Shown: positions 26,513 to 63,213 of the stretch, piece by piece
Layout of the letters: the number at the start of each line of letters is the position of its first letter
How positions within the stretch are numbered: position 1 is the stretch's first letter
Assembly (NCBI GenBank): GCA_050084515.1
Contig: CM114271.1
Location: 22,258,001-22,322,000 of the forward strand
DNA length: 64,000 nt
DNA from: Blasia pusilla
Taxonomy: Eukaryota
Reading direction: 5' to 3'
Program-made: the position numbers and the translations under genes
The notes under the pieces: model-generated
Database searches by the model: none
Told to the model about the DNA's origin: nothing
What the model saw: only the letters and a program-made list of their open reading frames with translations

Positions 26513-27270
26513 TATCGTGCGCATGCACATCGCTACACAACCCACATCGTTGGTGACATCTACACACCACACAACACTTATATTCCCCAACACATAGGTA
26601 GATCCACACCTAAACAAAATACACTCACGCATATACATTGGGACCCTACAACTGAAATCAAGAGTACTAAAAACGGCTTACCCGGCCTAAAACTCCACTC
26701 ATGAGTCTACATCGGCATATCAAACCACATCCACCCTTTGTTATGAGGGAATCCGAATGCTAGCACCCTAACTCCTATATATCCACACACGTCTATGCAA
26801 GAGAGGCACTCATTAGGCTCAATATGAGAAAGATGGCTTGAGAAATCCATCTCTTTCACTCTTATACCCTTGGGAAGAGCCAAAAAGCTCTTCCCCCAAG
26901 CCCTCCCAACGGTAACTTGCGTGCACAGGTTATTGGATGACCATTGACTTGTCCAATGGGTCATTTGACGGACTAAAGTAGGGAGATTTCCATAAACGAC
27001 GTTCCCGACGCAACAAACCTATCGCCAACCTCATCTGACATCTAGGGACAAAGTTACACCCAAACAACCCGCTGACTCACTATATCATCGACGCGATAGA
27101 ACTTTACCTACGTCAAAATAAGATGTGATAGCTATCGTGCGCAAACACATCGCTACACAACCCACATCGCTGGTCACATCTACACACCACACAACATAGA
27201 TCTTCCCCAACATACGGGTAGATCCACACGTAAACAAAATACACTCACGCATATAGACTGAGACCCCACA
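26513..27270 (-). repeat. 3' terminal B-A-B repeat block of the minus-strand DNMT-gypsy copy
   Basis: B1 27270-27133, 2-nt spacer, A 27130-26655, B2 26650-26513. Purine tract (TAAGGGGGCGG on minus) lies just before B1. Confidence 0.85.
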
Positions 27271-27299
27271 ACCGCCCCCTTAGCTGGCAGTCGGGTCCC

Positions 27300-28470
27300 C
27301 CTAACTCCATATAGCACACACATATGTACTCGACGAGATCTCCTATCCTATATAAGTCTAGCACCATTGGTGTCGTCATCCCCGCAACATTGCCACACTG
27401 CAACAACCCGCCATGTTGATCCCTCCAAGAGATCTGACATTCTTGTACCCTGCTCCAAACATAGACGCAGCTCCACGCATGCCTCACGAGCTCGTATGCA
27501 CTCCACGCATCTCAATGCTCATCCCCAACAATGATAAAATCAAACTCCCCACCATGGGAAGAGACATCCATCTTGGCATGTCTCTCAGTGGGACTATCCG
27601 CTACGGGAATGTCCTCCCCAACCACTATTTAATCAACTGACACCACATGTGAATGCTGCCAGCGTGGTCACCATATTCTCACGCGGTCGACCATCACTAA
27701 CTCTTGCAAACTGCACCGATAGATGGCTCATATGTTCATCACCTAATCGCCATCCTGGCCGTTAAGAAACTATCTCCTCCCAAAAATCCAGAATAAAACC
27801 AAGGGGATACAACAATGTATTCCCTACTAACATAGCATACAACTCTGTCGGCGTCGTAATCGCTTGCGTCTGCACCATTGCACTATCTGACTCATGCTCT
27901 TGCCAAAGTCTTACCACCAACTCTTGTCGAGTCATATATAGCGTGGGTGATACGCCCCCAATAGAGATTTGTATCTGAAAGGCATAATGCTCAATGTTGC
28001 ATTTTCGTGAACCCAACGCCAAACACACCGCCTTCCCTAACATCAAGGACTGCGCTCTCGGATCAAGTAGGATGCGTTGGAGGTGGTACACCGTACCTAT
28101 GGGACTAACCAAGAAAAAAACTCATGCTCAGTTATCCAACAACACCACACTTGGTGTGATCATGGCTCGCTCTATCGCTCACCGAGCTGGCATATCTACC
28201 AACTTTGCCGCCGCCGCATGCCATGACTCAATGGAGGACGTCTTGAGCTCTTGCTCTGAGGGCAAGTCTACCACCTCCTCAACTATGTCCGAACGAGAGG
28301 TAGTCACCTCTTCACGCTCACACAACATGGCGGCCACTCGGAACACCTCCGCTGGTCCAACTTCCAACGTCGCCAACTCCATAGTGGAAAACAACGGAGC
28401 GTGGCTCACTCTAGTGGCCACCTCCAACAATGTGGTCAACACTGGCTCCACCGGAGCCGGCATAGGAGTT
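27300..28470 (-). pseudogene. Gag-PR linker, aspartic protease and start of the DNMT domain of the deleted gypsy copy
   Basis: LVSPIGTVYHLQRILLDPRAQSLMLGKAVCLALG is homologous to 43385-43684 (degenerate LLDSGA protease motif). 28179-28463 is homologous to 43158-43451. Confidence 0.8.
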
Positions 28471-29298
28471 TTCTAGGGGCTGGTATTATGGATGGAGAGA
28501 GGAAGAGAGAGAGGAAGAGAGGAAGAGAGGAAGAGAGGAGAGTCTCTCTTCAAAAAGAAGGGCAAAATCCGTCTCCTCTCTTCAATTTTTTTTGACATTT
28601 TTGAAATTTTTGTTTGCTTTCAAATTCATGGAATCTTTAGAAGAGAGTAGCAAGTGGATCACATTCGGGCCTAAAGTAACCTTCTTTTTTGAGGCTTCCA
28701 AGAACAAGTAGACATCATAAGACCGCTACAAATATCCTTCCATCACTCTCCATGTGAGCCCAATTTTCTTCACATTGCCTGTCTAAGCCAGCTCTACAGT
28801 AAGCCGAGCTGAGGGGTATTAATGTCGGAGGACCATCGACAGATAATTTGACCCGAAGTAGCAATTTCACCTCAAGGAAAGGTTCAAATAAAGACTCTAA
28901 CTATGGTCTCAATAGACTCATGTGCCCTTCAAGGTTTAGCTTCTCTGAGGATGTGGGTGACATTATGGATTGTTGACTCTTCTTGCATTAAATATCCCAT
29001 CCGATCAATACTCATCCATGAGGGGGTTTCACAACAGAACAAATCACTAATTACTGATGGTAGCCAAAGACTTTCATGATAGCATTGGATGATGTTGGCT
29101 CATGAATGGGTGCATAAAGTATACCATGGAGTGTTATGCGTTTGACAACTTGGTTTCACCATTCTCTCAACCATTGAGAAATGTATGCATCAAGAAGAAA
29201 ATGTGATGAGACTGAGAGGACAATTGAACTAAAAGGTTGATAGCTATCATGAGTAAAGAGGAACGGATGCACCCATGTCCCTTCATTCAGACCCTTAA

Positions 29299-31944: not shown

Positions 31945-32090
31945 GGAAAATTCCGCCTCTCACCTGGACGATTCCGCCTCTTGCGTGGACCATTCCGCCT
32001 CTCACCTGGACGATTCCGCCTCTCGCCTGGACGATTCCACCACTCGCCTTGAGGACTCAGCCTTTTTTCAGGAAGACTCCGCCTGAGAAT
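31945..32090 (-). repeat. In-frame 21-bp coding tandem repeat (AESSRxE)n
   Basis: ttccgcctctcacctggacga repeated ~5-6 times. Confidence 0.85.
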
Positions 32091-33460: not shown

Positions 33461-34275
33461 CTGCAACCGGTCGGACTCCGACGGGTCGCAATTTTGTCAA
33501 CCCATAGGGGTCGAAATGGTAGCACAGAGATAAATGTTGCAACCCGTCGGAGTCCAACGAGTCACAACACATATCTTTGTGTTACACTTATTACAACACT
33601 CTTGAATTTTTTAGAGAGAATTGCAACCCAGTCGGACTCTGAAGTCGGACTCTGACGGGTTTTGGAATGACTTCAATTCGGAGACAAGCTCTCGGAAAAA
33701 AACTGCACATATCAAACCTTATGAGTCCGACGAGTTGTGGAATGACTTCAATTCGGAGATAAGCTCTCGGAAAAAAACTGCACATATCAAACCTTCGGAG
33801 TCCGACGGGTTGTGCGATGCCTTGTAAAGCTGAAATTGGATGCCTAAAAGCAAGCTCTTGTACTCTAACTACCTACCCTTGGGATGTGTGGGGGGATGCA
33901 ACTCGTCGTAGTCGGACGAGTTGCTTTCGGCCAAAAGTATCCGAAAAATACCGGACAGTCCAGCAACTTGTCGGACTCCGAGGAGTTGCTTTTAGGCATC
34001 CGATGATTTGTTAGCTCTCGTTGTGCAACTCGTCGGAGTCCGACGGATTGCAGAACAAATAAATCATGCAGTCATTTTTCCACCCGTCGATGTTTGACTG
34101 GTTTCAGTATCCCGGATTAATCTGGTGTGCTTGGCCATCAGGCAACCCGTTGGACTTCGACCGTTTGCTTGACTACGACATTGACCACAAACAGGATGGT
34201 GGCAAGAGACTCAAATCATTCCTTCCCATCTTTAAGCTTTCCAATTATTCAACCTGTCTGACTCCGACAGGTTGA
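33461..34275. repeat. Palindrome cluster 3 (intron 2 of the ParB-MTase gene), including a ~75-bp tandem duplication at ~33660-33810
   Basis: About a dozen degenerate gcaac(c/t)cgtcgga(g/c)tccgacgggttgc copies. Confidence 0.88.
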
Positions 34276-35889
34276 AGCAATCAAACTTAAAGAAGAGGAA
34301 ACTTACATATTCATTGCATGCATTGCCATTTCCAACATTGCCATGTGATGAGGAAATGGATGGAGCACAACTGCCTTCACGCAAAAATCCGCCTCCAATG
34401 AATTTGGGCGCTCCTCTGCAAACTGCGTCCACACCATGTACCTGTGGTTTCCATCCGAGATGAAGAAGTAAGGGTTCCCCATCCTGCTAAATTTGGTTCC
34501 TTCAATCGCTCTTCTGAACTCTTGATCTCTCATCCTCCAGAAAGTATCCAGCGCCTCCAAGTCCTCTTCCGTCACCACCGCTTGGGTTCCATAATTGTCG
34601 TAAGGTTGAACATAGAATGGAGGGAAGCTGTCGACGTAGGATGTCACTGCCGACTGTTTGAGCTTTGCAATGTCCTCCTCCGACTAAATTTTGCGGACGT
34701 ACCCCATTGTCCGTAATTGATAGAGTGGAATTCTCGGGGCGTTCTGGCCCTCCATCAGTGCCATATGCTTAACAATCTGCCACAATGGGGACCAAGTCAA
34801 TAAAATAATTAGCCTTCACATAACTCAAATTTTTCTTACCTGCTCAAAGATTGGGTCGATGTCGAGGCCTGCCAACTGCTCTGGGATAGCAGCAGGCAAG
34901 TCCACGGTGAAACTCATCGATACGATAAAGGTCGATTTCTTTGGCACGGTTCAAAGACGATGAAGACTCTTCTCCTACTTCTTCAAATATGTCCACCATC
35001 TCCACACTTGCTGTCCTCATGACCTCATTGTCTGTCACTTGAACTTCGGCCGTTTCCTCAACCGATTTTAGATTCATGGTGTCCTTAGACCTCATCAGAG
35101 ACATTTTTTGCATCTCAACACTCTCTGTTGGACGAGCATAGCTTTCTTCAATGGCAATTGCTTTTTCCTTTTGAGCTTTCGCGAATTTTGCTCGCCTCAC
35201 AGAGGCATCAAGACGCTTCTTCTGGTGTTTCTCATCCGCGACTCTTTTCTTCAAGGCCTTTGATGCCTCATCCTCGGCGTTTTGCTTAGCGAGCTCCTCT
35301 AGAACACTTTTTGCTAGAACCTCCTGCGTGTACACATCTGCTTCCCTTTTCCACTCCTCTATTTCTTGTTGCCTTATCTCATTTTCCAAACAAGGACCTA
35401 GAAATGGTGACGTTGGAGTCCTTATGGACTTGGGAGTGATGCTCCTACCTTGGTTGCTTGTGTTTTCTTTCTCGTCATGATGCATGTTGGGTCAGTTCTT
35501 CCTCTTTGACAGTCTAATCTGCTCTTGTGCACGATAGATCCCTCGGAGCATTTCCTGATGAAGCACCGTGACCCTAAACCTGACTCTCTTAGCCTTTCAT
35601 GATGAAGTGCCGTGACCCTCTACCATATGGGCTTGCCAAAATCAAACCCTCGTAGCGTCGGGTGTTGGATCTTTGTAACCTTCTAGCAAAGTGGTGATGT
35701 AGCCGAGTTTGGCAGCGGATAGGAAACGTCAACTGTTGCGAGGAAGAGCACATGAAATCGCGAAATGAAAAACGGGAATGATCAAAACCTCGGCCTTTTA
35801 TACTTTTCCAACCATTGAGCTGACCGTTGGGTGGTTGGGTCATATCGACAGCGACGTGTCGGCCGTTATGGAACTTTGCACGTGGGAAC

Positions 35890-36720
35890 CCGGGCAACCC
35901 GTCGATCTCCGACGGGTTGCACGCTTCCCTCGTCTTGGGGATGCGGGGTGAGTTACCAAGTCAACCTGTCCGAGGCCGACGGGTTGCACGCGTTCCTCGT
36001 CCTCGGGTAACAAGGCAACCCGTCGGAGACCGACGGGTTGCCTGGGTACCTCGCCTTGTTACCCGAGGGCCAAGTTGCACGCTTCCCCCGTCTTGGGGTA
36101 ATAAGGCAAGGTACCCGCGCAACCCGTCGGAAACCAACGGGTTGCACGCTTCCCTCGTCTTGGGATTACAAGGGGAGGTACCCGCGCAACTCGTCGGAGA
36201 CCAATAGGTTGCACACTTCCCTCATCTTGGGAAAACAAGATGAGGTATCCGGGCAACTCTTCGGAGACCAACAGGTTGCAAGCTTTCCTTGTCCTTGGGT
36301 AAGAATGCGACAAAGCATGGTCCCGAGGCAAGCCGTTGACCTCCAACGGGTTACAAGGTCTACCATGGGTTGGACACTTCCCACCATACGGCAAAACTGC
36401 ACTCACGGTTTGCACGATTCATTGGACAAAAGAAATTGACGCGAGATCCAAAAGGGAAAGTGAGGTTAGGTGCCTTACGAATCCGTCGCAGTCCCCAACG
36501 GGTTGCTGTAGCAAATCCATGCGATGTCTCGTATCTCGATGTTAGCAAATCCCGACTCCAATCATATAGGTCAGCCAAGCAAGGGGTACCAACCCAACGG
36601 ACTCCGACGGGTTGCAAGTTACACTCATACTCTTACAGAAGCAGGTACTCCGTGGCTTTGCAACCCACGTGTCTAAGTCCCAAATTTTGCAACCTGTCGG
36701 ACTTTGACAGGTTGCAACAG
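35890..36720. repeat. Palindrome cluster 4 (between the divergent genes), partly in 67-bp tandem units
   Basis: Palindrome starts at 35894 and 35961, then 36119, 36186 and 36253 (67-bp period), most followed by a cacgcttccctcgtcttggg-like sequence. Confidence 0.9.
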
Positions 36721-40899: not shown

Positions 40900-41460
40900 A
40901 CATCCGCACATGTCCCCTCCTATGGGTCAATCTCAACCCCAACGCTCGATGGCTCGATTACTCTCGCAACACCCCGAGTCACCATCGCAACAGCCTCAAC
41001 TTGAGCCGCTCTACACATAAATCCCATCCTTGTAGAATCCTCATTAGCACATGGTAAGATGTGGAGGCTGGCGCGACACTAGCTACTCTTAGCTTCGTGC
41101 ATGCGTGCAATGGCGTCATCGTCATGGCAACAATCCTCTCCTCCAACTAATCTATGCGCGTAAGGAGCGCTGCATCATGTGCATGTCCTCCATCTACTAT
41201 GACGGGTGATAGCACTCTACCACTACAATCACCCACCAACTCTCTCACCCCCAAGTCATGTGCCTACATCAGGACGTACCTCATGGCAAAGATCATAATA
41301 CGTATCCCTAGTGTGACCATATCGGTGATAATGATCACATTGCCACTATAGTGGGGCCATCCTCTGTGGCTCCTGAGCAATCACAGGTGCCCGTGGCCCT
41401 CTCCCATGATGTGGGCAGTTTCTCTACTTATGTGGCCCATCACACGTTGTCGTATAGTAA
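40900..41460 (-). pseudogene. Gag fragment (two degenerate zinc knuckles) of the minus-strand DNMT-gypsy copy
   Basis: TCDGPHK*RNC and CDHYHRYGHTRDTYY. The reverse complement of 40900-41170 aligns with 42750-43010. Confidence 0.75.
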
Positions 41461-42659: not shown

Positions 42660-44263
42660 TCGACCACGTATGCTGCAATTAGAAGGCATGGTGGTAGAGG
42701 ACCACCACCAACTAGAGAAGATGGAGCATGAGCACCAGAGCCGACACTTCTCTCATACATCGATCAATTGGAGTAGAGGATTGCTGCCATGACGATGATG
42801 CAGCTCAGGAAAGGCACGGAGCCGCGAGCAACTATTGTGGCTCCAACTTCTGCCTCTTACCCTGACCCGGGTGAGGATCTCGCTAGTATGGGGTTTATGT
42901 GTAGCGCAACTCTAGTTGAGGCAGCTGCAGTGGTGACTCATGGTGCTATGAGAGGCATCGAGCCATAGAGAGGTGGAGTTGAGATTGACCCATCGGAGGG
43001 GACCGATGGGCGGCAAGCTAGGGTTCTACAGTCATTCACATTGTCGGAGGCACTACACACACCATCGATGGTGCATTGACGACTAGTGGTGCCTACAACT
43101 CAGGCAAGTACGTCGACGTCACGAGGAGTTGGAGTGACAAATCCTATGTCGGCTTGAGTGGAGTCAATGTCGACCATAGTGTTGGAGGTGGCCACCAGAG
43201 TGAGTCAAACTCCGCTATTTTCCGCCATAGAGTTGGCAACGTTGGGAGTTGGACCAGCTGAGGTGTTCCGGTTGGCCGCCATGTTGTATGAGCATGGAGA
43301 GGTGACTGCTTCTTATTCAGAGGTAGTTGAGGAGATGGTGAACTTGCCCTCGGAACCGGTGCTCATGACGTCCCCCATAGAGTCATGGCATGCGGCGGAG
43401 CAGAAGTTGGTAGATATGCCAACTCGACGGGCCATAGAGGAGCAGTGGTGATACCTAGAGTAGTGTTACTGGATAATCGAGCTAGAGTATTTTGCTTGGT
43501 TAGTCCGACGGGGATAGTATACCACCCGCAGTGCGTCCTACTTGATTTGGAAGCGCAGGCCTTGATGTTAGGGAAGGCGGCGTGTTTAGCGTTGGGGTTA
43601 CGGAAGGCCGACATTGAGACTTGTCCCTTCCAGATAGAGACCTCGATTGGGGGCGTATCACCCACGCAGTATATGACTCGATAGGAGATAGTTGTTAGAG
43701 TCCAGCCAGAGCATGCGACGGATAGTGCTATGGTGCGCACATGTGCGATTACGACACAAGCTAAGTCGTACAATGTGTAGGTGGGGAGTATAGCGTTAAA
43801 TCCCCTAGGATTCATCCTTGACTTTTGGGAGGAGACCGTTGCTTATCGGCCAGGGTGGCGGTCAGGTGACGGGCAGATGAGTCAATTACCTTTGCAGTTT
43901 GCGGGACGAGGTGGTCGATCACGAGACGAGTCTGTGACCACGTTGGCAGCTTTCACAAGTAGTGTTAGCTGGCCATGAGAGTTGTTGGAGGGGAACGCAC
44001 ATGCGGAGGATGTCCCAATAGCGGATAGTCCCACTGAGAGACAGGCCATGGAGGGTGTCTCTTCCCATGTTGGCGAGACCTCTTCACCATTGTGGGGTAC
44101 AACTTGAGAGCTAGAGAGGAGTGCCGACAACCTCGTGACTCATGCGTGGAGTCATGCCTTTATCTCGGAGGAGCGAGAGTCAGGTGGCGATCGGGCTCCT
44201 GGAGTGGAGACATTGACCCCATTGGATACCACACGCGTTGTGTGGCAGTGTCCAGAGGAGGGT

Positions 44264-45190
44264 GTTAGGGTTTTAGATCTCTTCGGAGGGATAAGCACTA
44301 GATTGGTTGCAGTATTGTAGGCGGGCATACGGGTGCATCAGTACCTTTATGTAGAGAGAGATGATACCACACGGCAACTATCATTATGTCACGTAGCAAG
44401 ATTGGTCGAGAGGTATCCTGAGTTGTTGTCAGTATCTGCGAGTACGGGGATATCAACATACACTACTCGCCGACATCTCTTTGGTGGGGACGCAGGATCT
44501 GGATAGAGTTTGCACCATTCATTTGGTGATTGTTGGATGGCCATGTCATGGTCATTCATCAACTGGCCGAGGATTTGGATCGCAGGATCCAAGGCCAAGG
44601 ATGTTTTGGGAGATGCTGCGAGTAGTATGACACTTGCAGAAGACTCAAATACGTTCTCCAACATACATTTTTTAGAACGTGCCGTTGTTGGGAGACACTC
44701 AAGCACGTGTGATGACGAGTGTGCATCAAGTAAGGTCATGGTTACGACCTGTTGTGTTGCTAGATGCAGCGAGAGTTGGATCACGTGCCGATCGTCCATG
44801 ACTGTGGTGAACGAACCTGATAAGATCAGAGGTACTGAGTCTAGCATACGATGGAGTCTAGAGATCACCACATCTCACATTGGATGCTATTTTGGGCTCA
44901 GGGGGTCAATCTCAGGTGGTGATGCGGGATGATAGACAACCGTTGGCGATGGCCAATAGGGTGGGGGAGTTGAGGGCAGCCTTACCTACGTTGGTGATAT
45001 TCCCATCATCCCATGCCTTTTGTCAAGGAGGGCCACGCATGATTTGGGATGAGGTGACCTGAGCATTAGAGGAGCCTACAGTAGATGAGCGCGAGCGCGC
45101 CATGGGGTGTGCTACGGATACTACAGTGGTGCCAGGTATGACTGAAGCATCCCGGAGACAAGTGTTGGGGCAGGCGATGGACCTCAACTG
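44264..45190 (+). pseudogene. DNMT3-like C5 cytosine methyltransferase domain within the gypsy pol
   Basis: Motif I VLDLFGGI, II YLYVE, IV LVIVGWPC, QDPRPRMFWEMLRV, VI (E>*)NVP, VIII LLDAARVGSRADRP*LW*TNL, IX DERERAMG, X RRQVLGQAMDLN. Confidence 0.9.
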
Positions 45191-45599
45191 TCTCACGTCC
45201 ACGAGTTGGACCATTGCCTACACGGTCTATACAGGCATTGGCTAGGGGCGGGACAAGGAGAGATAGGCACCCATGGACTTCCTGGGACGTCGCTCGAGCA
45301 GAGAGTGCGAAGGCAGCCAGAGTAGCACATGTTCATTTTTTGGATGTGGAGCATGGTGTAGGAGGTCAGAGTGGAGTGGCTGTTGCGAAGGTGGCTAGGG
45401 TTGCTACATAGCAACCAAAGCCAGAGATTGCGTCCTCTCCGAGTGAGGTCACAATGGAGACTTAGGAGCCTGTGATAGGTCTCAAGTTGATAGGAGGAGA
45501 GCGACGGCGAGTTCATAGGTTTTTGAGAGGGCATGTCAGTTGTTTTGCCTTCAATATGAGATACTTGGGTAGCTAAAGGGTCTCGGGATACGGATTGAG

Positions 45600-48496
45600 T
45601 TGGCTAGTGATACGCCGATCTTTCGTCGACCCTACATGTGTTCTGATATGGAGCGAGCCTTGATTCAGAGCAAGAGTCAGGACTTGTGGAGTTATCCCAT
45701 GGGGAGTATGCATCTGCCACAATCATGTTGGCGAAGAAGGACATGTATGGCAATTGGACGGATAAGCGGATGTGTGGAGATTACCGTCCTATCAACCGAC
45801 ATACGAGGTCAAATCGGTACACCATGTCTACTCTTGAGGAGATCTTTGATGTGGTAGAGCATGCAAAGATCTTCGATACTTTAGATCTCTTTGCCAGCTA
45901 TCATCAACTTCCTATCAGGTTGGAGGACAGGGAGAAGACGGTATTATGGGGGATAGATTGGTTTGGGAGATATTGCTTGTATGAGTGACGGTTCTTATCA
46001 TTTGGGTTGAAGAACGCGCATGCAGAGTGTCAACGAGTGATGGATAGGATTCTGGCTGGCTTGGAATTTGTATGATGTAACATAGATGATATTCTTATCT
46101 TTAGTTCCACGGTTGAGGAGCATGAGCGACACCTGGAGGAGGTATTTCGGCATTGCAGTTACATGGACTGAAGTTACATCCAGGCAAGTGAAGATTCTTT
46201 CAGGAGCAGATTGAGTACTTGGGACACACCATAAATCTGAGTGGGTTAAGCATTCAGTAGACAAAGGTGGAGGCTATTGCGTAGATTCCACGCCCTACAG
46301 ATGTGAGTCAAGTCCGATCATTTCTTGGACTGGTAAACTTCTATCGACGGTATGTCAAGGGTTTTAGTGCGATCGCAAAGTCTTTCACCTTGTTGACGAG
46401 ACTTTATCAGGTTTGGTTGTGGGGAGATGATCAGGAGCGAGCATTCAAGGAGCTCAAGGACACATTGACGTCCTCATCCATTTTACAGAGACTGGTTAGG
46501 GGTCGCCCATTCCGGTTACATACGGGTTGGAGCATGTTGGTTCTAAGAGCATTGCTTACTCAGAGGGATAATGAGGAGAGGGAGTTTGTTATGGCTGACG
46601 CGAGCTGATAGAACAACATTTCAGAGGAAAATTATAACTCTTACGAGGGAGAGTGCTTGGCTGCAATGTGGGCCGTGGCACATTTCAGGTGCTATTTATT
46701 CGGCAACCCTTTCACACTTATCACTGATCATCAGCCGTTGAGGTGGTTGATGGAGTTCGACAAGCTTACGGGAAAGCTTTCCCGATGGGCTCTATTACTA
46801 CAGGAGTATGAGTTTGAGATGGTTCACAGGCCAGGTCGGCTGAACCATGATGCGGATGGTTTGAGTCGTAACCCATGTCCGAGTCAGAGAGACGACATAG
46901 GAGCTCGATGGCACGGAGAGAGTAATGAGGAGATGGTGCCCGGTTGGCATGCATCTACCTATCTTTGTTGGTTGACTATGGTAGTTCAATCATAGGTGAT
47001 GACTCTAGTAGTGGGATTGGATGATGAGTCTTTGGATCCGGAGGTCAGTGAGGAGGCGACAAGTGGTCGTGATATCCATGACGACGTGGAGGTTGTGGAG
47101 TTCTTGCGCAGTGACATCATAGCGAGCACAATGAGTGTTAGGGAGCGGGATCGGATCCTACAGAGAGCCAGGAGGTTCATGTGGGAGGGGACTCACATTT
47201 TGCAAGTATGGGGAGATGGTAGGATGCGAGTGGTACCTCATCCTTCCTAGCGAGCAGGTGTAATGTGACATGCCCATGAGGAGTTGGGACATTTTGGAGT
47301 GAAGCGTACTTACAACTTACTCTAGATTCAGTATTGGTGGCGTGACATGCATATTGGGGTACAGCAAAGTATGTGACAAAGTACGAGCATCCTTCAATGC
47401 TCCCACTCCGTAGTTACATCCTTTGCCGATTATGGGTTTATGTTATCGGTGGATTTTAGACTTTGCGGTACCTTTGCCATTGACGGGACGTCATCACAAG
47501 TACTTGTTGGTCATGGTGGAGCATTTATCCAAGTGGATAGAGTTGGTGGCACTACCGGACAAGGTGAGCAAGGAAACAACTTATGCATTTCTAGATCGTG
47601 TGCTTAGTCACTTTGGTGCACCAGCGGAGGTGTTGACTGACCAAGGTCCCGAGTTAAGGGGAGAGTTTTAGACCTTGTGTGATCAGGCGTTGATAGATCA
47701 CCGCACCACGTCCATAGATCATCTTGAGGCGGATGGGTTGGTGGAGAGAGTAGTACATACGGTGAAGAGAGGATTGCGCAAGTATGGCTTCCAACGGGGA
47801 CAGTTCAGGGAGTGGGACCTACACTTGTCATTGTTGGCTATGGGTTGTCGCTTTAGTCGGTACGCATCCTTGGCATCATTTTCACTGTAATTTTTGCTCT
47901 TTGGGAGAGAGCCAGATTTACCTTCAGCTATTCGACGTAACGTGGCGGAGGTGTTAAATCTTGATGATCCAGATGTGTGGGTACAAGCGTGTTCTTAAAG
48001 GGCAAAGATTTTTTGTAGAGTTATGCCTATGGCCTTTGGGAACTTAGCTATTGCTCAGCATAAAGATACATTGAGGTACGCGACCATTCGTGGAGGAGGT
48101 TATCGCCCAAGGATTAAGAGGTTTCATCCTGGAGATTACGTGTATTTACAGCAAGCGGCACCCACGACGCTACATGTCACTGTAGGGCGCACAATCCTAC
48201 ATGTGCGCGAGATATTATCGACTAGAGTTATCATGTTGGAGAGACGGGATGGTATGGTCTAGAAGGATCATGTGCGCAATTGTGCGCCATGCCATCTTCT
48301 GAACGTAGACGGGACAGTGGATCCGAGCTTGGCAGTGGTACTTGCAGGCTTGAGGTGTATGTTGTGCGGATCTGCGAGGGGTGCAGCCACCATGTTGGTA
48401 TGTGATGGTTGTTCTCGAGGGTGGCATATGTCATGTCTAACCTCCCCTCTTGATGTAGTTTCCATGGGACGATGGATGTGTCCGAGATATGCATAG
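45600..48496 (+). pseudogene. Gypsy RT - RNase H - integrase - PHD finger (degenerate)
   Basis: PIFRRPY, KRMCGDYRPIN, (Y>N)IDD, VRSFLGLVNFYRRYV, LITDHQPL, LTDQGPE, ADGLVERVV; PHD CMLC...CDGC...WH..C...WMCP. Confidence 0.92.
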
Positions 48497-48575
48497 GGTC
48501 ATAGGTCATGTTAGAGAGATGTGATATTTTCTATCTGGAGTTGGGGGAAATCCAACTGCCAGCTAGGGGGCCGGT

Positions 48576-49331
48576 TGTGTGATCTCCATGTACGTGTATG
48601 AATTTATTTCTGTACATGTGTGGATCTACTTGTGTTTGGGGAAGACTGGTGTTGTGTGGTGTAAATCTGACCAGGGATATATATTTTGTAGCGATATGTA
48701 TGTGCACGACAGTTGTCACATCTCAGTAGCCGATAGGCCGAGATCTATCGTGGATAGGGCGTAGGAGCTAGCGGACTATCTTGAGTGTAACTTTGTCCCA
48801 TAGTGTTGGACGAGGTTGATGATAGGTCCATTGTGTTAGGAACGTCATTTCTGATAACTTTCCTGTTGAGGTCTTTCACAACCGAGTGACTTGTTGACCA
48901 GGTCATCCGCACTTGGTAACCTGTGCGCGTAGGTTACCAAGGATTTGGCTATTTTTAGGGGAAGAGCCTTTTGGCTCTTCCCAACCCTATATAAGAGAGG
49001 AAGATGGCTTTCCTAAGCACTCTTTCTCGTGTTGGGTCGTTGGAGCACCTCTCTTGTATGTGTGTGACATAGGACTATGGTGCTGGCATCCGGATTCCTT
49101 AATAGCACAGGGTGGACGAGGCTCGATATGCCAATGGAGATTGAGGAGTGGAGTTTTAGGCCCGGTGTGTCATTTTTTACTACTCTTTATTTTATTGTGT
49201 GATCTCCATGTACATGTATGAGTTGATTTTTGTACATGTGTGGATCTACCCGTGTGTGGGAAAGATCGATGTTATGTTGTGTAGATGTGACCAACGATGT
49301 ATGTTGTGTAGCGATATATATGCGCACGACA
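48576..49331 (+). repeat. 3' terminal B-A-B repeat block of the + strand DNMT-gypsy copy
   Basis: B1 48576-48711 and B2 49196-49331 (136 bp each, TG...CA) flank A 48714-~49190. Purine tract AGGGGG at ~48565-48570. Confidence 0.88.
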
Positions 49332-49502
49332 TCTGCACCAAAGAAATCTGAGAAAAATGGATAGCGCTTCCGTGCACGACCTCTCAAACTAAAAAAACGA
49401 AAAATACAAACGCCAACCAGTGTCTCCAAGGGCTCCCGACTGAGGCAACTCACTTGCCTACCTGCAAATAACGAATTCTCTGCCCCCTCGCATCTTTCTC
49501 AT

Positions 49503-49992
49503 GTAAAATCAAGAGTAGTAAAAATAGCTCACCCGACCTAAAACTCCACTCATGAATCTACATCGGCATATCAAACCACATCCATCCTCTGCTATGAGGG
49601 AATCCGAACGCTATTACCCTAACTCCTACACATCCACACACGTCTATGCAAGAGAGGCGCTCCTAAGGCTCAACATGAGAAAGATGGCTTGAGAAAGCCA
49701 TCTCTCTAACTCTTATACCCTTGGGAAGAGCCAAAAAGCTCTTCCCCCCAAAACAGCCCTCCCAACGGTAACCCACCTGCATATATTACCGGATGATTGT
49801 TGACTCGGTCAAGGGGTCACATGACGGACTAAAACCAAAATAGGGAAATCGCCACAAACGACGTCCCTGATGCAATAGAGTTCTCGCCAACCTCATCCGA
49901 CATCTCGGGACAAAGTTACACCCAAAAAGCCTGCTGACTCACTATGTCGTCGACGCGATAGAAATTTACCTACGTCAAAATAAGATGTGACA
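49503..49992 (-). repeat. 5' terminal repeat A of the minus-strand DNMT-gypsy copy (no B attached)
   Basis: High similarity to 26655-27130; followed on the minus strand by unique leader sequence, not by B. Confidence 0.85.
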
Positions 49993-50909
49993 ACAACTAA
50001 GGTGCAATCTGATGCCACTAGTGATGGAAATGAGAGCAAACCAAAGTCAGGTGGCATGAGGAAGAAAACAAGAGTACTTACTAAATCCCCAATTCTATGC
50101 TTTCCTTGCAATATAAATGATATTTCAGATGTTATTGTGAGCAGATTTTCAACATGGATGATGTCAAGTTCAAAAGGATATTACCACTTAATGGTTGGTC
50201 TTACAAAAAGTTACAATGTTTGTGACTTCACAATTTTGGACTTTATCCAATTTTTTATGAATGATAACGAAGATACTTATTCTTTTGTTTTCATATCAGT
50301 TGTAGGTTGGAGACAAGGTTGAATTCACTGAATTGAGGAATACTTTACATGTTATTGGCTATGGAGTGGTTAGTGGCCTTCAACGTAAAGATCGGTTATA
50401 TGGGTAGGAAATCCCAATAAGGGCACTCTCTTGTTGCTTGATTGAGGCCGTTGAGCCTAACTTAAAATTATGGCAAGCGAATAAGGACGATGAACCGCCA
50501 CTATATGTTTTGGGTGATGTTGTACGATTAGTTGTACTTTGGCCTAAAAAAAAAACTGAAAGAAAAGAGTACACTGATCTACTTCTATTAGATTTGGTGA
50601 TTAGATTTTTACTTTATGTTTCTATTGAACACTTTTCTTGTACCTACGAGGGAATTTAAACGTTGTTTCTACTTCAATATTCACATAATCCAAAAGAGAA
50701 GTCATGAAAAAGGCCATCTGACAATCAATTCTATTTTGTCTTCTCCTCCGAGGTATAAATTCCATGTTCTTGGTTCTTTACATTTCATATTTCTAATTAA
50801 GTAGGCATACAATTATTGGCTTCTTTTCATTTCTTACAATACATTCATATACTAGCTAGTGGTACCTTAAAAAACTGCAAACCATCAAATATACCCAATC
50901 CAACTTAGA

Positions 50910-55937: not shown

Positions 55938-56954
55938 TGTCGCGACCCTCATAACCAAACAACACCAAATACGCGCCAAGCGAAACATCAGAACTCAAAG
56001 GAACTCACGCCGCGAGGTTTGCGCTTTGGAGAGGCGTTTGGAAGAGTCTCTTGGAAAAGTCTAAGAGACGAAACGCGGAACAGAGTTGTGCGTTTCATGC
56101 GTTAGTGGTCGCGACCAGGAAACCTAGACCAAACGCGAGCCGAGACTTGAGATGAGTTGAGTCTTGGAGGTTGGTTGCCAAAGAGGTGAGAACCAGTTTG
56201 GAACACGGCTAGCGTTTGGGAGAATCTGACTGTGTTTAGGACCATAACGTTGAGCTCCAAGATGCGTTCGGGACAAGTAAGGGCGCGTTGAAAAGCTGAT
56301 CTCGAGATGCTTCCAACGCACAAAAGATCTCAGCAAACGCATAAGTACAGGCTGAGATATTGGCCAAAAACGATTCAGAGAGCAATCGGGTTGAGGGCCA
56401 ATTGAGGGGCCCGGTGTGTCTTTCCTAAATGTAGGGGGCCCCGGAGATCCCCAGAAGTACTAGTAAGGGGAGTACCTTCTCTGAGATGTCTCGGAAACGA
56501 AACCCCACTTTGGGCGCCAAACGGCGTTCAGAGGCACGGATGAAACGGGAGATGAAACCCAAACCCAAACCTGATCCAAGGGAGTGGACTTTGTACGCCA
56601 CACTTGGATTCCAACCGAGATTCACCGTGCAAGTCTTGGTGAGGAACTCATTGGATGTTCATCGGACAGTTGGAACCGCTAGGCGCGAAACGCCGTTTCA
56701 GGTTCTTGAACCGACCAGAAAGTTTGTCCCAAGTCTTTCGAGACTTGCCCGTGTTGGAAACCGCGAAACTAGGAAGGTTGAGCTTGAAGAGAGAGTTTGA
56801 GACGAGAACTCGGAAAGTCATCCCGCTGATTGATCCAAGACCCGACTAACCGAAGTGCGTGTTTGGATGCAGATCAACGTTGAGAGCGTGACCTACTGAA
56901 CGCACGCTTCCGCAACAAACAAGATTAACGTTCAAGGAGAGTAGGCGCACGACA
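55938..56954 (+). repeat. 5' LTR of the chromovirus
   Basis: TGTCGCGACC...GCGCACGACA. Confidence 0.96.
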
Positions 56955-56956
56955 CG

Positions 56957-56968
56957 TGGTATCATAGC
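56957..56968 (+). promoter_or_regulatory. Primer binding site (tRNA-iMet type)
   Basis: TGGTATCATAGC, one mismatch from TGGTATCAGAGC, 2 nt after the LTR. Confidence 0.85.
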
Positions 56969-57106
56969 AATTCCTTGATGAGCGTGAACTTGGGGTCGTT
57001 GAAGATCTGGATGTTTGGGGAGAACTCAAGGTAGCCGGAAGACCGCGACGCCGAGGAGGAACGCAAGAGGCGAGGAGGAGATCTGAGAAAAGGCGACGAC
57101 TCGCAA

Positions 57107-60100
57107 ATGGCGACCAAGGGCGAAGAACCGAGGAAACCGCGAGTCAAAGCAAAGAAGCCAAGAGACGAATCAATGAAGGACCGAGAGCCGGAGGTGGAAT
57201 TTGCGACTCCCGAAGTGCCGAAACCTAGACATGAGGATGTTCCAACCGAAATCTTTCCGCGGGACCTTCGGGAAGACCTTTGTAAGACTAATTTGCCAAC
57301 ACCATTCACAGGAAGGGGGCATTCTCGGAAAGTGAGCGAGTTTCTAACGGAACTCGAACTCTATTTCGAAGCGCAAAAGGCAGATGAACAAGACAAGGTG
57401 ACTGTAGCGGTCACGTTTCTGAAGGATCACACTCTCCATTGGTGGACGGCTCACCGCAAAGAACATCTAGGTCGTGGGAAAACGTTGAGTTGGGAAGATT
57501 TCAAGGAGTTGATTGGGAACCGATTCACTCCATAATATCAAGAGTACCGCGATGGCATGGAGGTGGTGAGGTTGCGCCATAGTGGATCACTTGGCGCTTA
57601 TGTGCGAGAGTTTAGTGCGCTCATGAGTGCACTTTCCACGGATGAACATACTAAAAAGGTGATCTTCCTAAGTGGGCTCAAACCGAGTGCCGAGAAGGCT
57701 CTCTTTCGTATGCCTCACATCCCAGAGACGTGCGCGGACCTCTTGAGACTAGCCGAGCGGATTGGGGACGATGAAGTCCAACACCCGAAACCCTTTGAGA
57801 CAAAAAGTTTTTCTAAGTTACAGAAGAACAAAGGGACATCCAAGAGGGTTTGGAATGGGGGTGAGTGCGACCACGGAGGGTCTCTTGCCCCAGCGGCGAA
57901 ACGAGTGGAACTCAACGCGAAGCCAAAGGGGCCGCCGTTTACGAAGTCAGCGAATGCCAAAGTGATTTGCTACAATTGTGGCGAACCCGGGCATATGGCT
58001 AAGGAATGTGTTAGGCCCAAGGTTAGTAAATCGAGTATGATTGCGTTTGCCGCTAAGCATTTATCGGAGGGAGATCTAGATACATCTCTACAAGTCACCA
58101 AGAGAACGCCCAATTTGGTTTACCTAGGATCCAAGATCGCTAATCGCGATGTGATGTTGCTCGTTGGTACAGGTGCTTCGCACTCATTCTTGAGTCCGAG
58201 AATCGTAAAAACGTTGGGATTGCCAACCACCAAGGCGGATGAACCCATTAGGGTAGGATTTGCGGGAGGCAAGTCCCACCAGACATCAGATCTGGTTTTA
58301 GGGCTAGTTGTGAGATGCGGAGTGTTTGAGTTGAAGGAGAATTTTACGCTATTTTGAGATGGACGGTATCGACGAGTCTTGGGAACACGTTCTTGGATGC
58401 GTATGAGGTGGAACTGAGGCAAAGACCTTTGAGGTTGAGCGTCTTGGTTAACGGCAAACGGACGGACGTCAGATTGGTTCGTGAGGTGCCTAGAAAGACG
58501 GAGTTGGTGAACGCCATCACGAGGACGAGTTTGGCCGAGTTAGAGGAAGGATTCCTTTGCTTGATGAGACGAGTAGAGGATGATGCAAGCGCGAGATGCA
58601 GAGATCAGAACTCAGCTTCAAGGGGGATCCTTGAAACACTCAAGAGAGTTGTGAAAGAATTTGAAGATGCGTTGACTAAGGAGCTTCCGACTGAGTTGCC
58701 ACCACATAGGGCAGTTGATCATAAGATTGAGGTGCTACCAAGATCTCAACCACCTTCAAAGGCACCATATAGGTTGAATCAAGAGGAACTTGCTGAGTTG
58801 AAGAAACAGTTGGGTGAACTCCTAGAGAGGGGTTACATCCGAACAAGCAAGTCACCTTATGGGGCGCCCATCCTCTTTGTAAAGAAGAAGGATGGGAAGT
58901 TGAGACTCTGTGTTGATTATCGGGCGCTGAATAAAGTGACGGTAAGGAATAACTATCCTCTACCGAGGATGGATGACCTCTTTGATCGATTTTGGTGCCA
59001 AGTATTTCAGCCGGATTGACCTGAAATCAGGATATTATCGATTCGGATTGCCAAGCGGATGTAGAGAAGACCGCCTCAGAGGACGAGATACGGTTCGTTC
59101 GAGTTTGTAGTAATGCCTTTCGGTCTTTGTAATGCACCTCCGACGTTTACCACTTTGATGAACTCCATCTTTCACAAGGAGACGGATGAGTTTGTGATCA
59201 TCTATATAGATGACATACTCATCTATTCGAAAACACTAGAGGAGCACGCTTCGACATTTGAAGACGGTGTTTGAGAAACTTAGGCTTAACAAGTCGTATG
59301 CGAATGCGGATAAGAGTGAGTTCGGTTTGACGAAGATCAAGTTCTTGGGGCATGTGGTTAGTGCGGATGGAGTGAGTCCAGACATGGAAAAGGTGAGCGA
59401 TTGCGAATGGGAACCTCCTTCCACGGTGAAAGGGATGAGAAGGTTCATCTGAGTCGCCCAATTTTACCGGACATACGTGAAGAACTTTTCGCGATAGTGA
59501 AACCTCTCACGGATTGGACCGCAAAGTTTTCCAATACTACATGGACCGAGGAAGTGGATAAAGCGTTCAATCGAAGTCAAAGAGATCCTCTCGCAGAACG
59601 ATTTCAAGTCGCCGGAGTTTGAACAACCGTTCGAGGTGCACACGGATGCTAGTGATTTCGTGATTGCAGGAATGTTAGTGCAAAAAGGGAGACCTGTAGC
59701 ATACGAAAGCAAGAAGCTTAGTGACACCGAAAGGAGATGGCCTACTCATGAGAAAGAGTTGTTTGCGGTGGTTCATTGCTTGAGGAAGTGGCGTCACTAT
59801 TTGGGACTTCACAGGACTCGAGTATTCACCGATAACATATCGCTCAAGTATTTTGAGACCCAGGATCGCGTGACGCCAAAACAACTTCGGTGGCATGATA
59901 CCTTGGCGTTGATGAATGTGGAGCTAATCCACAAGCCGGGGAAAGACAATGTCATTCCAGATGCGTTAAGTCGCAGGGATGAACACATGCCATCGACGAC
60001 ACAAGTGTTGAGAGCAATGTTCCCTAATGAAACAGACCTGGAAAGAAGGATTCGTGAAGGATACATGAAGGATGAGCAAGCGAGGGAGTACCTTGGGAAG

Positions 60101-61497
60101 TTAAAGCGGGGCGAGAAGGTGGCCAATCTGAGTTTGAGACACGGCTTGCTAAGGTTTAACCAGAGCAGGATTTATGTAGGCCAAGGCAAGCTACGGACCA
60201 AGGTGTTTGTGGAATGTCATGATGGACCTTTGGCGGGACACAAAGGGGAGAAATCCACTCTTGTTGTTTTGTCTAAGAGGTTCTTCTGGCCCAACATGAA
60301 GGAAGATGTTGCTCAATATGTGAAAACATGCGTGACTCCGCCAAAGCGAACGCGTGTCTTATGCGAAGAAACAAGGTTTACTTCATCCTTTGCCAATCCC
60401 GGAGGGACCCTTGCAAAGCATTAACATGGATTTCATTACGAGTCTTCCAGAATCTGAGGGATACAATGCCATACTTGTGATAGTTGATTGGTTTAGCAAG
60501 TTGGGGAGGTTTGTGCCGACGAGAGAGTCTGCGACGGCCTACGCGACTTCCCGACTATTCTTGGATGGTTGGTGGCGTGCGCACGGATTGCCTAGGAGCA
60601 TTGTGTCCGATCGGGATCCGAAGTTTACCAGTGTCTTTTGGAAACATCTATTCAGGAGGTTCCGGACCAAACTCAGCTTTAGTACGGCCTTCCATCCTCA
60701 AACGGATGGGCAAACGGAAAAATTAAACTCGGTCGTAAACCAATACTTACGGAATTACGTGAGTGCGGACCAAAGAGATTGGGCCAAGTGGTTAAGTATG
60801 GTTGAGTATTGTTACAACTCGACTAAGCATTTCGCAACCGAGAATCTCGCGTTTTTCGGGCGTATCAAAGAGAACCGAAGGGCCTCTTGACTTAGCTCTT
60901 TCGAAGGGCAATACATCGACACACACTCGTCAAGCAACGGCGGAATGTTTGTTAGTGGAAATGCAGGAACGACAAGAGCGAGCGAGAGAAAGTCTCGCCA
61001 AGGCTCAACTAAGGTACGTAAAGCATGCTAACAAAAGTCGGCGCCAAGTGAGTTTCCAAGTTGGGGAACAAGTGTGGTTGAGTGTTAAGAATCTCACTCT
61101 TCCGAAGGAATTGTCCGCGAAATTGTCAGCCAAGTATCCTGGACCGTATGTGATCAAGGCAAGGCCGTTTGAGGATGTGTACACGTTGGAGCTGCCAAAC
61201 GAGTTCAAGATTCACCCGACTTTCCATATGTCATTATTGAAGAAGTATCTTCAAGACAACGTGCGTCCGGAGCAAAGGAGGATGTTGAGACCACAACCGG
61301 TCATCAGAAATGAGGAACCAGAGTTCGAGGTTGAGACTATTCTGCGTTCCAGACGTAGGGCCACCAAGTACGAGTACTTGGTCAAGTGGAAAGGCTATCA
61401 TGTGAAAGAGGCGACTTGGATTGCGGAGGCGGATCTAGAACATGCGCAAGAAGCATTGCGTGACTTCAGATGGATGCAAGAAAGGCACGTGCGTTAG
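57107..61497 (+). pseudogene. Chromovirus gag-pol (zinc knuckle, protease, RT, RNase H, integrase, chromodomain), interrupted by one stop and several 1-nt frameshifts
   Basis: [68 protein letters not shown]...YLVKWKGY...ATW. Confidence 0.95.
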
Positions 61498-62177
61498 TAC
61501 ATGGTGAAGCAATGGACATAACTTGTGACCGGAAAGCTTGGGCCGATAACCCGTTGTAACTAGAAAGGTTTAGTTGTTGCAATAAAGAAGACATGGATTT
61601 GGAGATTCGATGCTTGTATTGTAATTTTGAGTTTGGTTTGTGCAAGGCAATGAGTAGTTCTTCATATGCTTAGGATGTAAGTCAAGGAGACCAAACAATG
61701 AGTATTTGAGGTGAGAGCTTGTATTCAGATAAGGCATTTAGATCAGGACCAAGTGTTGAAGTACTAGCATTTGGGCTCGCCCTAATGTCGGCGGGGCAGA
61801 TGAGTCTGACTTGGGGTTTGTGGTGATCTCATTCATGTTTCATGATTGAACTTAGTGACGCGCCTAGGTGGAGTACAGGTGACCCAAAAGTAGTACGAGT
61901 TGGCTAGGTAGACAGACGGTTGTTTACAAATAGTGAGTGAAGTGTTAGGTTGCAGACTTAGTGAGCTTATTTTGATAGTTAGATTAGTTCCGCAGAACTA
62001 GTCTAGGCTCGTCAGAAAGAGAAGCTAATAAGTCTAAGTGTTGCAAGCGACAACCTAAGACTTAAGCCAAAAAGAGGAATTGCGGGTTAGCTACCAGAAC
62101 GCGATTCTGTGTTAAGGGGTCGGCTTCCCAGAACTTAACATCAATAAGGTTTGCGTTGATGAGGACATCAACCTTCT

Positions 62178-62190
62178 AAGGAGGGGTGAG
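62178..62190 (+). promoter_or_regulatory. Polypurine tract
   Basis: AAGGAGGGGTGAG directly before the 3' LTR. Confidence 0.85.
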
Positions 62191-63213
62191 TGTCGCGACC
62201 CTCATAACCAAACAACACCAAACGCGCGCCAAGCGAAACATCGTAACTCAAAGGAACTCACGCCGCGAGGTTTGCGCTTTGAGAGGCGTTTGGAAGAGTC
62301 TCTTGAAAAGTCTAAGAGACTAAACGCGAACAGAGTTGTGCGTTTCATGCGTTAGTGGTCGCGACCAGGAAACCTAGACCAAACGCGAGCCGAGACTTGA
62401 GATGAGTTGAGTCTTGGAGGTTGGTTGCCAAAGAGGTGAGAACGATTTGGAACACGGCTAGCGTTTGGGAGAATCTGACTGTGTTTAGGACCATAACGTT
62501 GAGCTCCAAGATGCGTTCGGGACAAGTAAGGGCGCGTTGAAAAGCTGATCTCGAGATGCTTCCAACGCACAAAAGATCTCAGCAAACGCATAAGTACAGG
62601 CTGAGATATTGGCCAAAAACGATTCAGAGAGCAATCGGGTTGAGGGCCAATTGGAGGGGCCCGGGTGTCTTTCCTAAATGTAGGGGGCCCCGGAGATCCC
62701 AGAAGTACTAGTAAGGGGAGTACCTTCTCTGAGATGTCTCGGGAAACGAAACCCCACTTTGGGCGCCAAACGGCGTTTGAGGCACGGGATGAAACGGGAG
62801 TTTGGCGCGAAACCCAAACCCAAACTCCGATCCAAGGGAGTGGACTTTGTACGCCACACTTGGATTCCAACCCGAGATTCACTTCGTGCAAGTCTTGGTG
62901 AGGAACTCATTGGATGTTCATCGGACAGTTGGAACCGCTAGGCGCGAAACGCCGTTTCAGGTTCTTGAACCGACCAGAAAGTTTGTCCCAAGTCTTTCGA
63001 GACTTGCCCGTGTTGGAAACCGCGAAACTAGGAAGGTTGAGCTTGAAGAGAGAGTTCGAGACGAGAACTCGGAAAGTCATCCCGCTGATTGATCCAAGAC
63101 CCGACTAACCGAAGTGCGTGTTTGGATGCAGATCAACGTTGAGAGCGTGACCTACTGAACGCACGCTTCCGCAACAAACAAGATTAACGTTCAAGGAGAG
63201 TAGGCGCACGACA
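62191..63213 (+). repeat. 3' LTR of the chromovirus
   Basis: Near-identical to 55938-56954. Confidence 0.96.

Follow-up and report, generated by a model that had tools for sequence, protein, structure and literature searches.

Split direct repeats serve as a diagnostic of tyrosine-recombinase retroelements. In a stretch of 64,000 nucleotides (nt) from Blasia pusilla (GenBank assembly GCA_050084515.1, contig CM114271.1, positions 22,258,001 to 22,322,000 of the forward strand; referred to as the window), they are found instead on a gypsy lineage that encodes a DDE integrase. The inserted copy has the order A1 - 12-nt primer binding site (PBS) - leader - coding region - G-run - B1 - NN - A2 - B2, where A and B are the repeats and NN is a 2-nt spacer. 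This split layout is probably the normal, family-wide architecture of a Ty3/gypsy lineage and not that of a damaged copy, with the inserted copy representing a permuted version of a DNA with two long terminal repeats (LTRs). The pol of the lineage comprises a possible protease, a Dnmt3-like methylase, reverse transcriptase (RT), RNase H, DDE integrase and a PHD finger. The window holds the 3′ ends of two copies, P on the forward and M on the reverse strand, and a lone A repeat of the 5′-terminal type, A3.

Both copies in the window end in B1-NN-A-B2, as a first-pass annotation of the sequence had proposed, and the individual blocks were confirmed by repeat search and self-BLAST. A profile search of the whole window detected three A and four B copies and no A or B beyond these. 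According to self-BLAST, B1 and B2 are 88.6% identical in M (140 nt, E 9e-46) and 83.9% identical in P (137 nt, E 5e-36), while the B copies of M and P share 73-80% identity; B copies are thus closer within one element than equivalent B copies are between elements, as expected if both are made anew for each insertion. In the same comparison the A of M matches A3 with 85.2% identity over 485 nt (E 4e-157), the A of P matches A3 with 70.2% identity, and the entire M block matches the entire P block with 71.9% identity over 823 nt. The homology between M and P ends exactly at the end of B2 (26512/49332), and in an alignment the G-rich tract ..agctagggggccgg lies directly ahead of B1 in both. The joint between B1 and A reads GCACGACA-gt-TGTCACATC (GACA-gt-TGTC) in P and GCACGATA-gc-TATCACATC (GATA-gc-TATC) in M. 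The sole 5′ end in the window, A3, consists of A alone, and neither alignment nor profile search found a B match in the sequence that follows it (49502-49332).

Relatives in metagenomes provide an overview of the layout beyond the window. An alignment search with pol yielded 80 metagenome loci with flanks, of which 51 were self-compared and 29 short or partial ones were left out of the self-comparison; profile annotation of all 80 gave matches in 32, and BLAST with the A and B of family F2 gave matches in 13. Loci with common flanks (joined by an equals sign below) were counted once. There are 12 independent B-NN-A-B 3′ ends in total, L047 aside. Ten belong to family F3 (L028, L030=L031=L033, L034, L036, L040, L043=L044, L049=L056, L067, L078 and, on the other strand, L073) and two to F2 (L010 and L021), the B of which is visibly homologous to that of the window. 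L047 is an additional B-NN-A-B end from F3 in which B2 is internally deleted to its last 29 nt. B alone forms the 3′ end at seven F3 loci (L038, L041=L042, L046, L059, L061=L062=L063, L064 and L080) and six F2 loci (L012, L017, L020, L024, L025 and L066), and three F3 ends were left unscored (L071, truncated A2; L069=L075, partial B; L077, contig end). Two more subfamilies, represented by L001, L002 and L006, show a G-run followed after ~100-140 nt by ..CACGACA-NN-TGTCA..; here, a contig end or decay hides B2.

The 5′ ends of the relatives are uniform. All 13 independent ones (nine F3 and four F2 loci) consist of A followed by leader with no B upstream, including L018=L019 with a 5′-truncated A and L014, which is without the usual leader (both F2). 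Intact copies with B-A-B or A-B at both ends would have meant that the 5′ end in the window was merely truncated; B-A, A-B or B-A-B was found at 0/13 independent 5′ ends. With A alone at the 5′ end (13/13 relatives and A3) and B-NN-A-B at the 3′ end, the copies do not have the identical LTR at each end that is expected of Ty3/gypsy elements. Two loci, L064 (536-9666, A...B) and L067 (4008-13677, A...B-A-B), have the same flanks and the same target site duplication (TSD), CCAA, and thus represent the same insertion, so that at least some of the B-only ends are later B1 x B2 deletions.

In all families A starts with TGTCA and B ends with (C/T)GACA. A perfect 4-bp TSD brackets the element, adjoining the start of A1 and the end of the terminal B, in six of the seven independent complete copies (L067 CCAA, L040 ATGT, L078 TGAC, L047 CCAC, L017 TGTT and L020 ATTA), and in the seventh, L031, three of four positions match (ATTA/ACTA). 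Further full-length copies with A-only 5′ ends and TSDs, which the first-pass annotation had called for, therefore exist, and the TG..CA termini and 4-bp TSD are those of Ty3/gypsy elements. In F3, B starts with ATACATG and A ends with TTCAAT; neither of these two ends is thus of the integrase type. The B1-NN-A2 spacer is 2 nt long in every case and variable in sequence (GC, GT, AA, AT and AC in F3; AC and GC in F2; GT and GC in the window; AC and TC in reads of other copies). The idea that NN is a copy of the final 2 nt of the TSD was rejected, as this holds for one of four cases (L078), which is chance level.

The signals for reverse transcription point to a different pair of boundaries. Immediately behind A1 stand 12 nt that match the complement of a site within A, and a TATA box precedes this site by 31-32 nt. 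In the window, ATGAGAAAGATG after A1 pairs at 12/12 positions with CATCTTTCTCAT in A, a site that is intact in the A of M too. The F3 counterparts are TCTAGAAAAACT after A1 and AGTTTTTCTAGA in A, which pair at 12/12 positions in L047, at 9-11.5 in six other 5′ ends, and at 6 in L064 and L067, in which one additional A puts the two out of register; the F2 counterparts are ACTCAAAGAACT and AGTTCTTTGAGT (12/12 in L017, 11/12 in L020). The pairing thus covaries: three families have three different 12-mers, and complementarity is kept. Judged by its sequence, the 12-mer adjacent to A1 is a Tf1-like self-priming signature. The proposal of the first-pass annotation that priming is non-standard thereby holds, in that no tRNA-type PBS is present, while the mechanism itself is not an unknown one. 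At the other side of the coding region, no gap separates the G-run from B1 in any of the 13 B-A-B loci listed, and the same is true of the purine tract that had been noted ahead of B1 in P and M. The reverse-transcription signals therefore define the LTR as B+NN+A, whereas the integration ends sit at the B/A joint. In the F2 A of L010 (2712-3049), a perfect 10-bp hairpin, CTCAAAGAAC ATA GTTCTTTGAG, surrounds the presumed transcription start, so that the PBS core is also present in sense orientation, immediately ahead of its complement.

Reads from the source species provide family-wide evidence that does not depend on assembled copies. Two raw whole-genome read sets (X12 and X13) and two contig sets with the same species label were mapped to positions 47800-50200 at 80% likeness; the read ends and joints given here are the best supported, and another 2,720 loose ends and 116 joints exist. 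In X12, with both orientations summed, the depth is 1,100-1,670 over the integrase/PHD region, ~1,500-1,930 over the A of P, 340-890 over A3 and 538 in the leader bin 49420-49500, compared with 0.1-2.3 for unique flanks in X12 and X13. The split-repeat family is thus very abundant, at a depth of roughly 1000-fold. The A start at 48714 is entered from unlike sequence by 456 reads (X13; consensus agreement 0.33) and likewise by 18 contigs (X3), and the B end at 49331 is exited by 2,087 reads in X12 and 2,136 in X13 (agreement 0.38), with 411 more X12 reads exiting at 49332 (agreement 0.34). These mixed flanks identify the A start and the B end as genuine element termini in many copies. Other X12 reads that pass the B end run into ..NN-TGTCACGTC.., where NN is AC (507 reads) or TC (487 reads); this context is the B-to-A joint of other copies. 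A P-type A is joined straight to an A3-type leader in 69 (X12) and 70 (X13) reads, and A followed by leader without B is therefore recurrent.

Two further observations concern the composition of the family in X12. The last 37-40 nt of B only (window 49292-49331) are matched by 1,064 and 1,356 reads with an upstream agreement of 0.84-0.88; because the sequence before the B tail is different and agrees well among these reads, an even more abundant subfamily or relative shares only the integrase-end part of B. Differences among copies between 47800 and 50000 are mostly C>T and G>A (204 and 224 places, compared with 12-98 for the other classes), as expected from the decay of methylated cytosines.

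The coding content places the family among gypsy elements, in agreement with the first-pass annotation. Pfam matches in P follow the order RVT_1, RT_RNaseH(_2) and rve, i.e. RT, RNase H and DDE integrase, which together with the TGTCA...GACA termini and the TSDs of the relatives is as in gypsy. Full-length relatives are colinear with P from 43170 to 48487 across the methylase region, RT, RNase H and integrase plus PHD (tblastn). The match to C5 DNA methylase in P (44397-44627) is borderline (21.7 bits versus a cut-off of 22); a DNA_methylase match in L040 has an E of 1.5e-6. The methylase region of P (43170-45197) is matched by Marchantia Mp_2g26090 (P0029) and by metagenome proteins that unite methylase, RT, RNase H and integrase, and within it P 44321-45197 aligns with the methylase portion of P0029, P0050 and P0051. 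Among solved structures, the nearest to the full relative P0050 is Ty3 Gag-Pol (7q5b, E 5e-102), and the nearest to its methylase region is DNMT3A (E 1.6e-4). Copy M retains only the N-terminal part of the open reading frame (ORF; 27717-28436, reverse strand) and is without 4.2 kb of RT-RNase H-integrase. A search with the RNase H ORF returned 81 homologues, of which 13 list a PHD finger (PF00628), 5 a C5 methylase and none PF00589; the best named homologues come from the liverworts Riccia sorocarpa, Calypogeia fissa and Marchantia polymorpha. Pfam scans that covered 179 ORFs of the window and 17 of L067 and L040 found no Phage_integrase or tyrosine recombinase domain. The Integrase_H2C2 finger is present in L067, and the C-terminal position of the integrase is taken by the PHD finger (PF00628), where the Tf1/sushi-Tcn1 group has a chromodomain. 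Matches to aspartyl protease are sub-threshold (L067 7142-8263, E 0.005; L040 7170-8363, E 0.0013), and no gag family was found in the Pfam scans of the L067 and L040 ORFs.

In the mechanism that we propose for the permuted copy, transcription would start at the 12-nt site in A1, and the RNA would prime itself as in Tf1. The minus strand would start at the end of A and the G-run would prime the plus strand from the start of B, and ordinary reverse transcription would produce DNA with two B-NN-A LTRs, in which the unique 3′ region (U3) comprises B, NN and the first part of A. The ends that the integrase recognizes, ..GACA and TGTC.., would then be abutted inside the LTR as a CA-NN-TG palindrome, not positioned at its outside. 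The inserted copy would be a cyclic permutation of this two-LTR DNA, A_left ... B_right-NN-A_right-B_left. Most economically, the end of the unique 5′ region (U5), i.e. the A end, would join the U3 start, i.e. the B start, through a two-LTR circle or end joining after strand transfer; in the LTR next to the leader, the integrase would subsequently open the B-NN-A joint. Two nicks after both CA, 2 bp apart, would leave recessed CA-3′OH ends as in processed retroviral DNA, and would explain a spacer that is fixed in length and free in sequence. Only A...B-A-B would keep a full U3 plus repeat region (U3-R) downstream and so be recopied, with A...B copies arising at least in part by later B1 x B2 deletion. 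The extra B after A2 might serve to make the 3′ poly(A) site usable, the 5′ copy before the leader being skipped. That the DDE integrase obligatorily uses the abutted-end ..GACA-NN-TGTC.. joint with its 2-bp spacer in U3, with insertion from a circle or by end joining, is a tentative proposal that is perhaps correct and that we would favour less readily than the architecture itself.

It is important to point out that several observations weigh against the permuted two-LTR form as the regular product, or against the route to it. Circle formation or end joining, and likewise the cut that the integrase would make at the internal joint, are steps that we infer, and the presumed transcription start is placed by TATA spacing and pairing. 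A...B copies with perfect TSDs exist, B-only ends account for 6/8 F2 and 7/18 independent F3 3′ ends, and A...B copies could be primary products too. The copies are old (A1/A2 86-92% and B1/B2 89-96% identical), with no fresh insertion among them. In most copies the A2|B2 junction is made up of the exact A end and B start, which is tidier than sloppy end joining predicts; small deletions occur at this junction in four loci (L036, L078, L049 and L056, the last two being one insertion), but indels of 15-18 nt are found elsewhere in B as well, and a clustering at A2|B2 is not clear-cut. The best-supported read joints do not allow the claim that flank|B1 or B-to-leader contexts are absent from the source genome. 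Finally, a random cut at one or other of the two joints of a two-LTR circle predicts dead A-B-NN-A ... B copies in the same number as live ones, which were seen at 0/13 independent 5′ ends; either the choice of joint is directed or the route is different.

The alternative that survives best, albeit as an unlikely one, is that the RT itself makes a linear A ... B-NN-A-B complementary DNA (cDNA), for example by a second plus-strand start at the A start or by copying of read-through RNA that includes B2, and that the integrase uses ordinary outer ends without any circle or end joining. Such a route would sit well with the lack of the mirror permutation A-B-A...B at the 13 5′ ends, with a mostly exact A2|B2 junction, and with TGTC..GACA outer ends and 4-bp TSDs that resemble normal integrase substrates. 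However, reasoning only, we found no scheme for it that is derivable from the PBS and the polypurine tract (PPT): the sole PBS-like pairing lies after A1 and directs the minus strand to start from the A end, no purine tract precedes A2, and no PBS follows B.

It is considerably less probable that A ... B is the primary inserted unit and that B-A-B ends are secondary. In favour of this, L017 and L020 have the A...B form with perfect TSDs, and many 3′ ends carry B only, but an A...B copy is without a downstream U3-R and could not be recopied. Furthermore, the L064/L067 insertion with and without A2-B2 is simply explained by B1 x B2 deletion, and the A1/A2 and B1/B2 pairs of one copy are similarly diverged.

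A tyrosine-recombinase element or mechanism of the PAT/Ngaro/TOC kind, in which cDNA is closed on the internal B1-A2 and inserted site-specifically, shares the repeat order A1-internal-B1-A2-B2 as described for these elements (PMC8969392, PMC4157794), yet deserves very little credence. The ORFs of the window and of L067/L040 contain no such recombinase domain and do encode DDE integrase and H2C2; TSDs of 4 bp are present here, and DIRS-type elements are described as being without TSDs (PMC8969392); and a strong-stop type PBS right behind A1 with a G-run immediately ahead of B1 fits LTR-type reverse transcription, not priming from an RNA 3′ end.

Least probable of all is an ordinary LTR consisting of the whole B-A-B block with an internal duplication; the single A at 49503-49992 would then be what truncation left of a 5′ LTR, or else a solo fragment. 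In its favour, the purine tract does adjoin B1 and the window-family B does start T-TG and end CA, so that the block would have TG..CA ends. Against it, all 13 independent 5′ ends are A without B upstream, the TSDs of six in seven complete copies lie directly outside A1 and B2, the source reads enter the A start from mixed flanks and repeatedly join A to the leader, and the F3 B start and A end are not of the integrase type. An artefact or segmental duplication as the source of the split repeats was rejected.

The positions of the blocks that make up P, M and A3 are collected in the table.

Features of the split-repeat family in the window (positions of the 64,000-nt stretch)
Feature	Position	Strand	Remarks
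Copy P, degenerate pol region	42894..48498	+	
Copy P, Dnmt3-like methylase	~43170-45197	+	
Copy P, RT	45430-46147	+	Pfam match to RT fragment, 46076-46168
Copy P, RNase H	46153-47350	+	Pfam match, 46285-46992
Copy P, integrase	47342-48250	+	Pfam match to rve integrase core, 47414-47668
Copy P, PHD finger	48263-48493	+	Pfam match over the same positions
Copy P, purine/G-rich tract	48560..48574	+	..agctagggggccgg, adjoins B1
Copy P, B1	48575..48711	+	ends GCACGACA; repeat search, self-BLAST, profile search
Copy P, spacer	48712..48713	+	gt, between B1 end and A start
Copy P, A (3′ copy)	48714..49194	+	begins TGTCACATC
Copy P, B2	49195..49331	+	3′ terminus of element; ends GCACGACA; homology to M stops here
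Remaining leader after A3	49332..49490	-	repeated in the genome; ended at 49331/49332 by the 3′ end of P
Putative self-primer binding site	49491..49502	-	directly 3′ of A3
A3, lone A repeat, 5′-terminal type	49503..49992	-	begins TGTCACATC at 49992
12-nt site inside A3	49686-49675	-	~32 nt downstream of TATAAGAG
Candidate 4-bp target duplication	49993..49996	-	outside A3 start; TTGT in element orientation, ACAA on +
Copy M, internal remnant	27394..28474	-	N-terminal methylase-pol ORF; 75% identical to P 43135-44316
Copy M, G-rich tract	27273-27290	-	same tract as in P, ahead of B1
Copy M, B1	27133..27272	-	
Copy M, spacer	27132-27131	-	gc, between B1 and A
Copy M, A (3′ copy)	26653..27130	-	contains 12-nt site at 26824-26835, complementary to A3 leader
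Copy M, B2	26513..26652	-	3′ terminus of M; then TTGT at 26512-26509

The TTGT outside the A3 start matches the TTGT outside the B2 end of M, 23.5 kb away, which could make A3 the 5′ end of M; since TTGT has a background of 0.0064 per position in the window and all B copies also start with TTGT, this single match is only suggestive. A profile search for the 5′ end of P found no further A or B and no TCTG|TGTC site in the window. P is colinear with L017 only from 42894 downwards, colinearity being lost upstream, and the 5′ 2.4 kb of L017 have no match anywhere in the window. A 75% inverted repeat (40904-41156 / 42758-43013) overlaps the upstream coding part of P and is likely to reflect a rearrangement that removed or inverted its 5′ part. 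Between M and P lie tandem repeats at 31917-32084 (21-bp unit), 33648-33797 (75 bp) and 35885-36306 (~67 bp), a stretch in which no protein family was found. A separate LTR retrotransposon at 55938-63213 (+) has ordinary 1.0-kb LTRs (55938-56954 / 62191-63213) that are 97% identical and pol ORFs that are largely open; its proteins share 24-35% identity with those of the split-repeat family.

The lineage reaches about thousand-fold read depth in one large genome, and related elements occur in several liverworts as well as in numerous plant-associated metagenome contigs. A standard LTR finder takes A1 and A2 as its pair, which would place the 3′ boundary 140-180 bp short, miss the TSD and lead to wrong dating or classification. 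The conflict between the reverse-transcription signals and the integration ends makes the use of the abutted-end joint by the integrase testable in plants. If an obligatory abutted-end joint is true, the family would form a natural bridge among LTR retrotransposons, the circle-integrating DIRS/Ngaro elements and IS-type (insertion sequence) circle-junction transposition. The combination of a Dnmt3-like methylase with a PHD finger is of interest for the engagement of host chromatin by transposons.

A precedent for the layout exists in the charophyte alga Klebsormidium nitens, the KnitGypsy-Dnmt3 element of which is described with DIRS-like repeats (de Mendoza et al. 2018, PMC5890265, Fig. 4c legend). 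According to this description, KnitGypsy-Dnmt3 resembles the Blasia family in having a gypsy-type Pol with a Dnmt3-like methylase inside and the repeat order A-coding-B-A-B; its host is an alga, the relatives of the Blasia family occur in liverworts, and the two are compared by description only (PMC5890265). The main text of that paper contains neither 'target site' nor 'primer binding', and no mechanism for KnitGypsy-Dnmt3 (PMC5890265). A 2026 preprint mentions 'streptophytes (Gypsy-DNMT3)'. In a literature search for split or permuted LTRs, or split repeats, on integrase gypsy elements, KnitGypsy-Dnmt3 was the sole precedent among the matches listed.

Split direct repeats are described as a trait of the DIRS group, which is without TSDs (PMC8969392, PMC8557442, PMC4157794), and the first-pass annotation had tied the layout to tyrosine-recombinase elements; the order is indeed shared, and on a gypsy element it is not unprecedented, given KnitGypsy-Dnmt3. 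In PAT, Ngaro, TOC and VIPER, as in the Blasia family, the order is A1-internal-B1-A2-B2 and the B1-A2 joint has the sequence that results when the right end is linked to the left end. These elements have a tyrosine recombinase and no TSD, whereas the Blasia family has a DDE integrase, TG..CA ends, 4-bp TSDs, a 2-nt joint spacer and an LTR-type PPT and PBS. In the model described for DIRS-type tyrosine-recombinase elements, the internal joint templates the circle junction (PMC7192593). For the Blasia family this model would be a functional analogy, since membership of the group fails on recombinase and TSD. Tf1/sushi and the plant Tcn1 elements, as described, resemble the Blasia family in having no tRNA PBS and a sequence adjacent to the 5′ repeat that is complementary to the inside of the repeat (PMC6317226, PMC2864245); they have ordinary LTRs and a chromodomain, whereas the Blasia family has split repeats and an integrase ending in a PHD finger. 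Troyka, which the first-pass annotation had named for a similar layout, does not provide one: it is described with 3-bp TSDs and CG..CG termini, in a lineage first filed under Gypsy (Kojima 2025, PMC12440569). The Blasia family differs on both counts, with TSDs of 4 bp and TG..CA termini.

Retroviral two-LTR circle junctions and the circles of IS3/IS30 likewise abut two ends head to head around a short spacer of fixed length. In the retroviral circle it is U5 and U3 that meet, a junction considered a dead end, and the circle-integration route was long debated and then discarded for retroviruses. Unlike in retroviral circles, each LTR of the Blasia family has the joint within its U3, where it appears to set the ends of the inserted copy. 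Overall, the split-repeat family is best grouped with the Gypsy-DNMT3 kind, as a member from land plants that has DIRS-like repeats. What is apparently new is the self-priming site, the G-run at B, the 4-bp TSDs at TGTC..GACA ends and the fixed 2-bp spacer, and apparently also the conflict between an LTR defined by reverse transcription and ends defined by integration.

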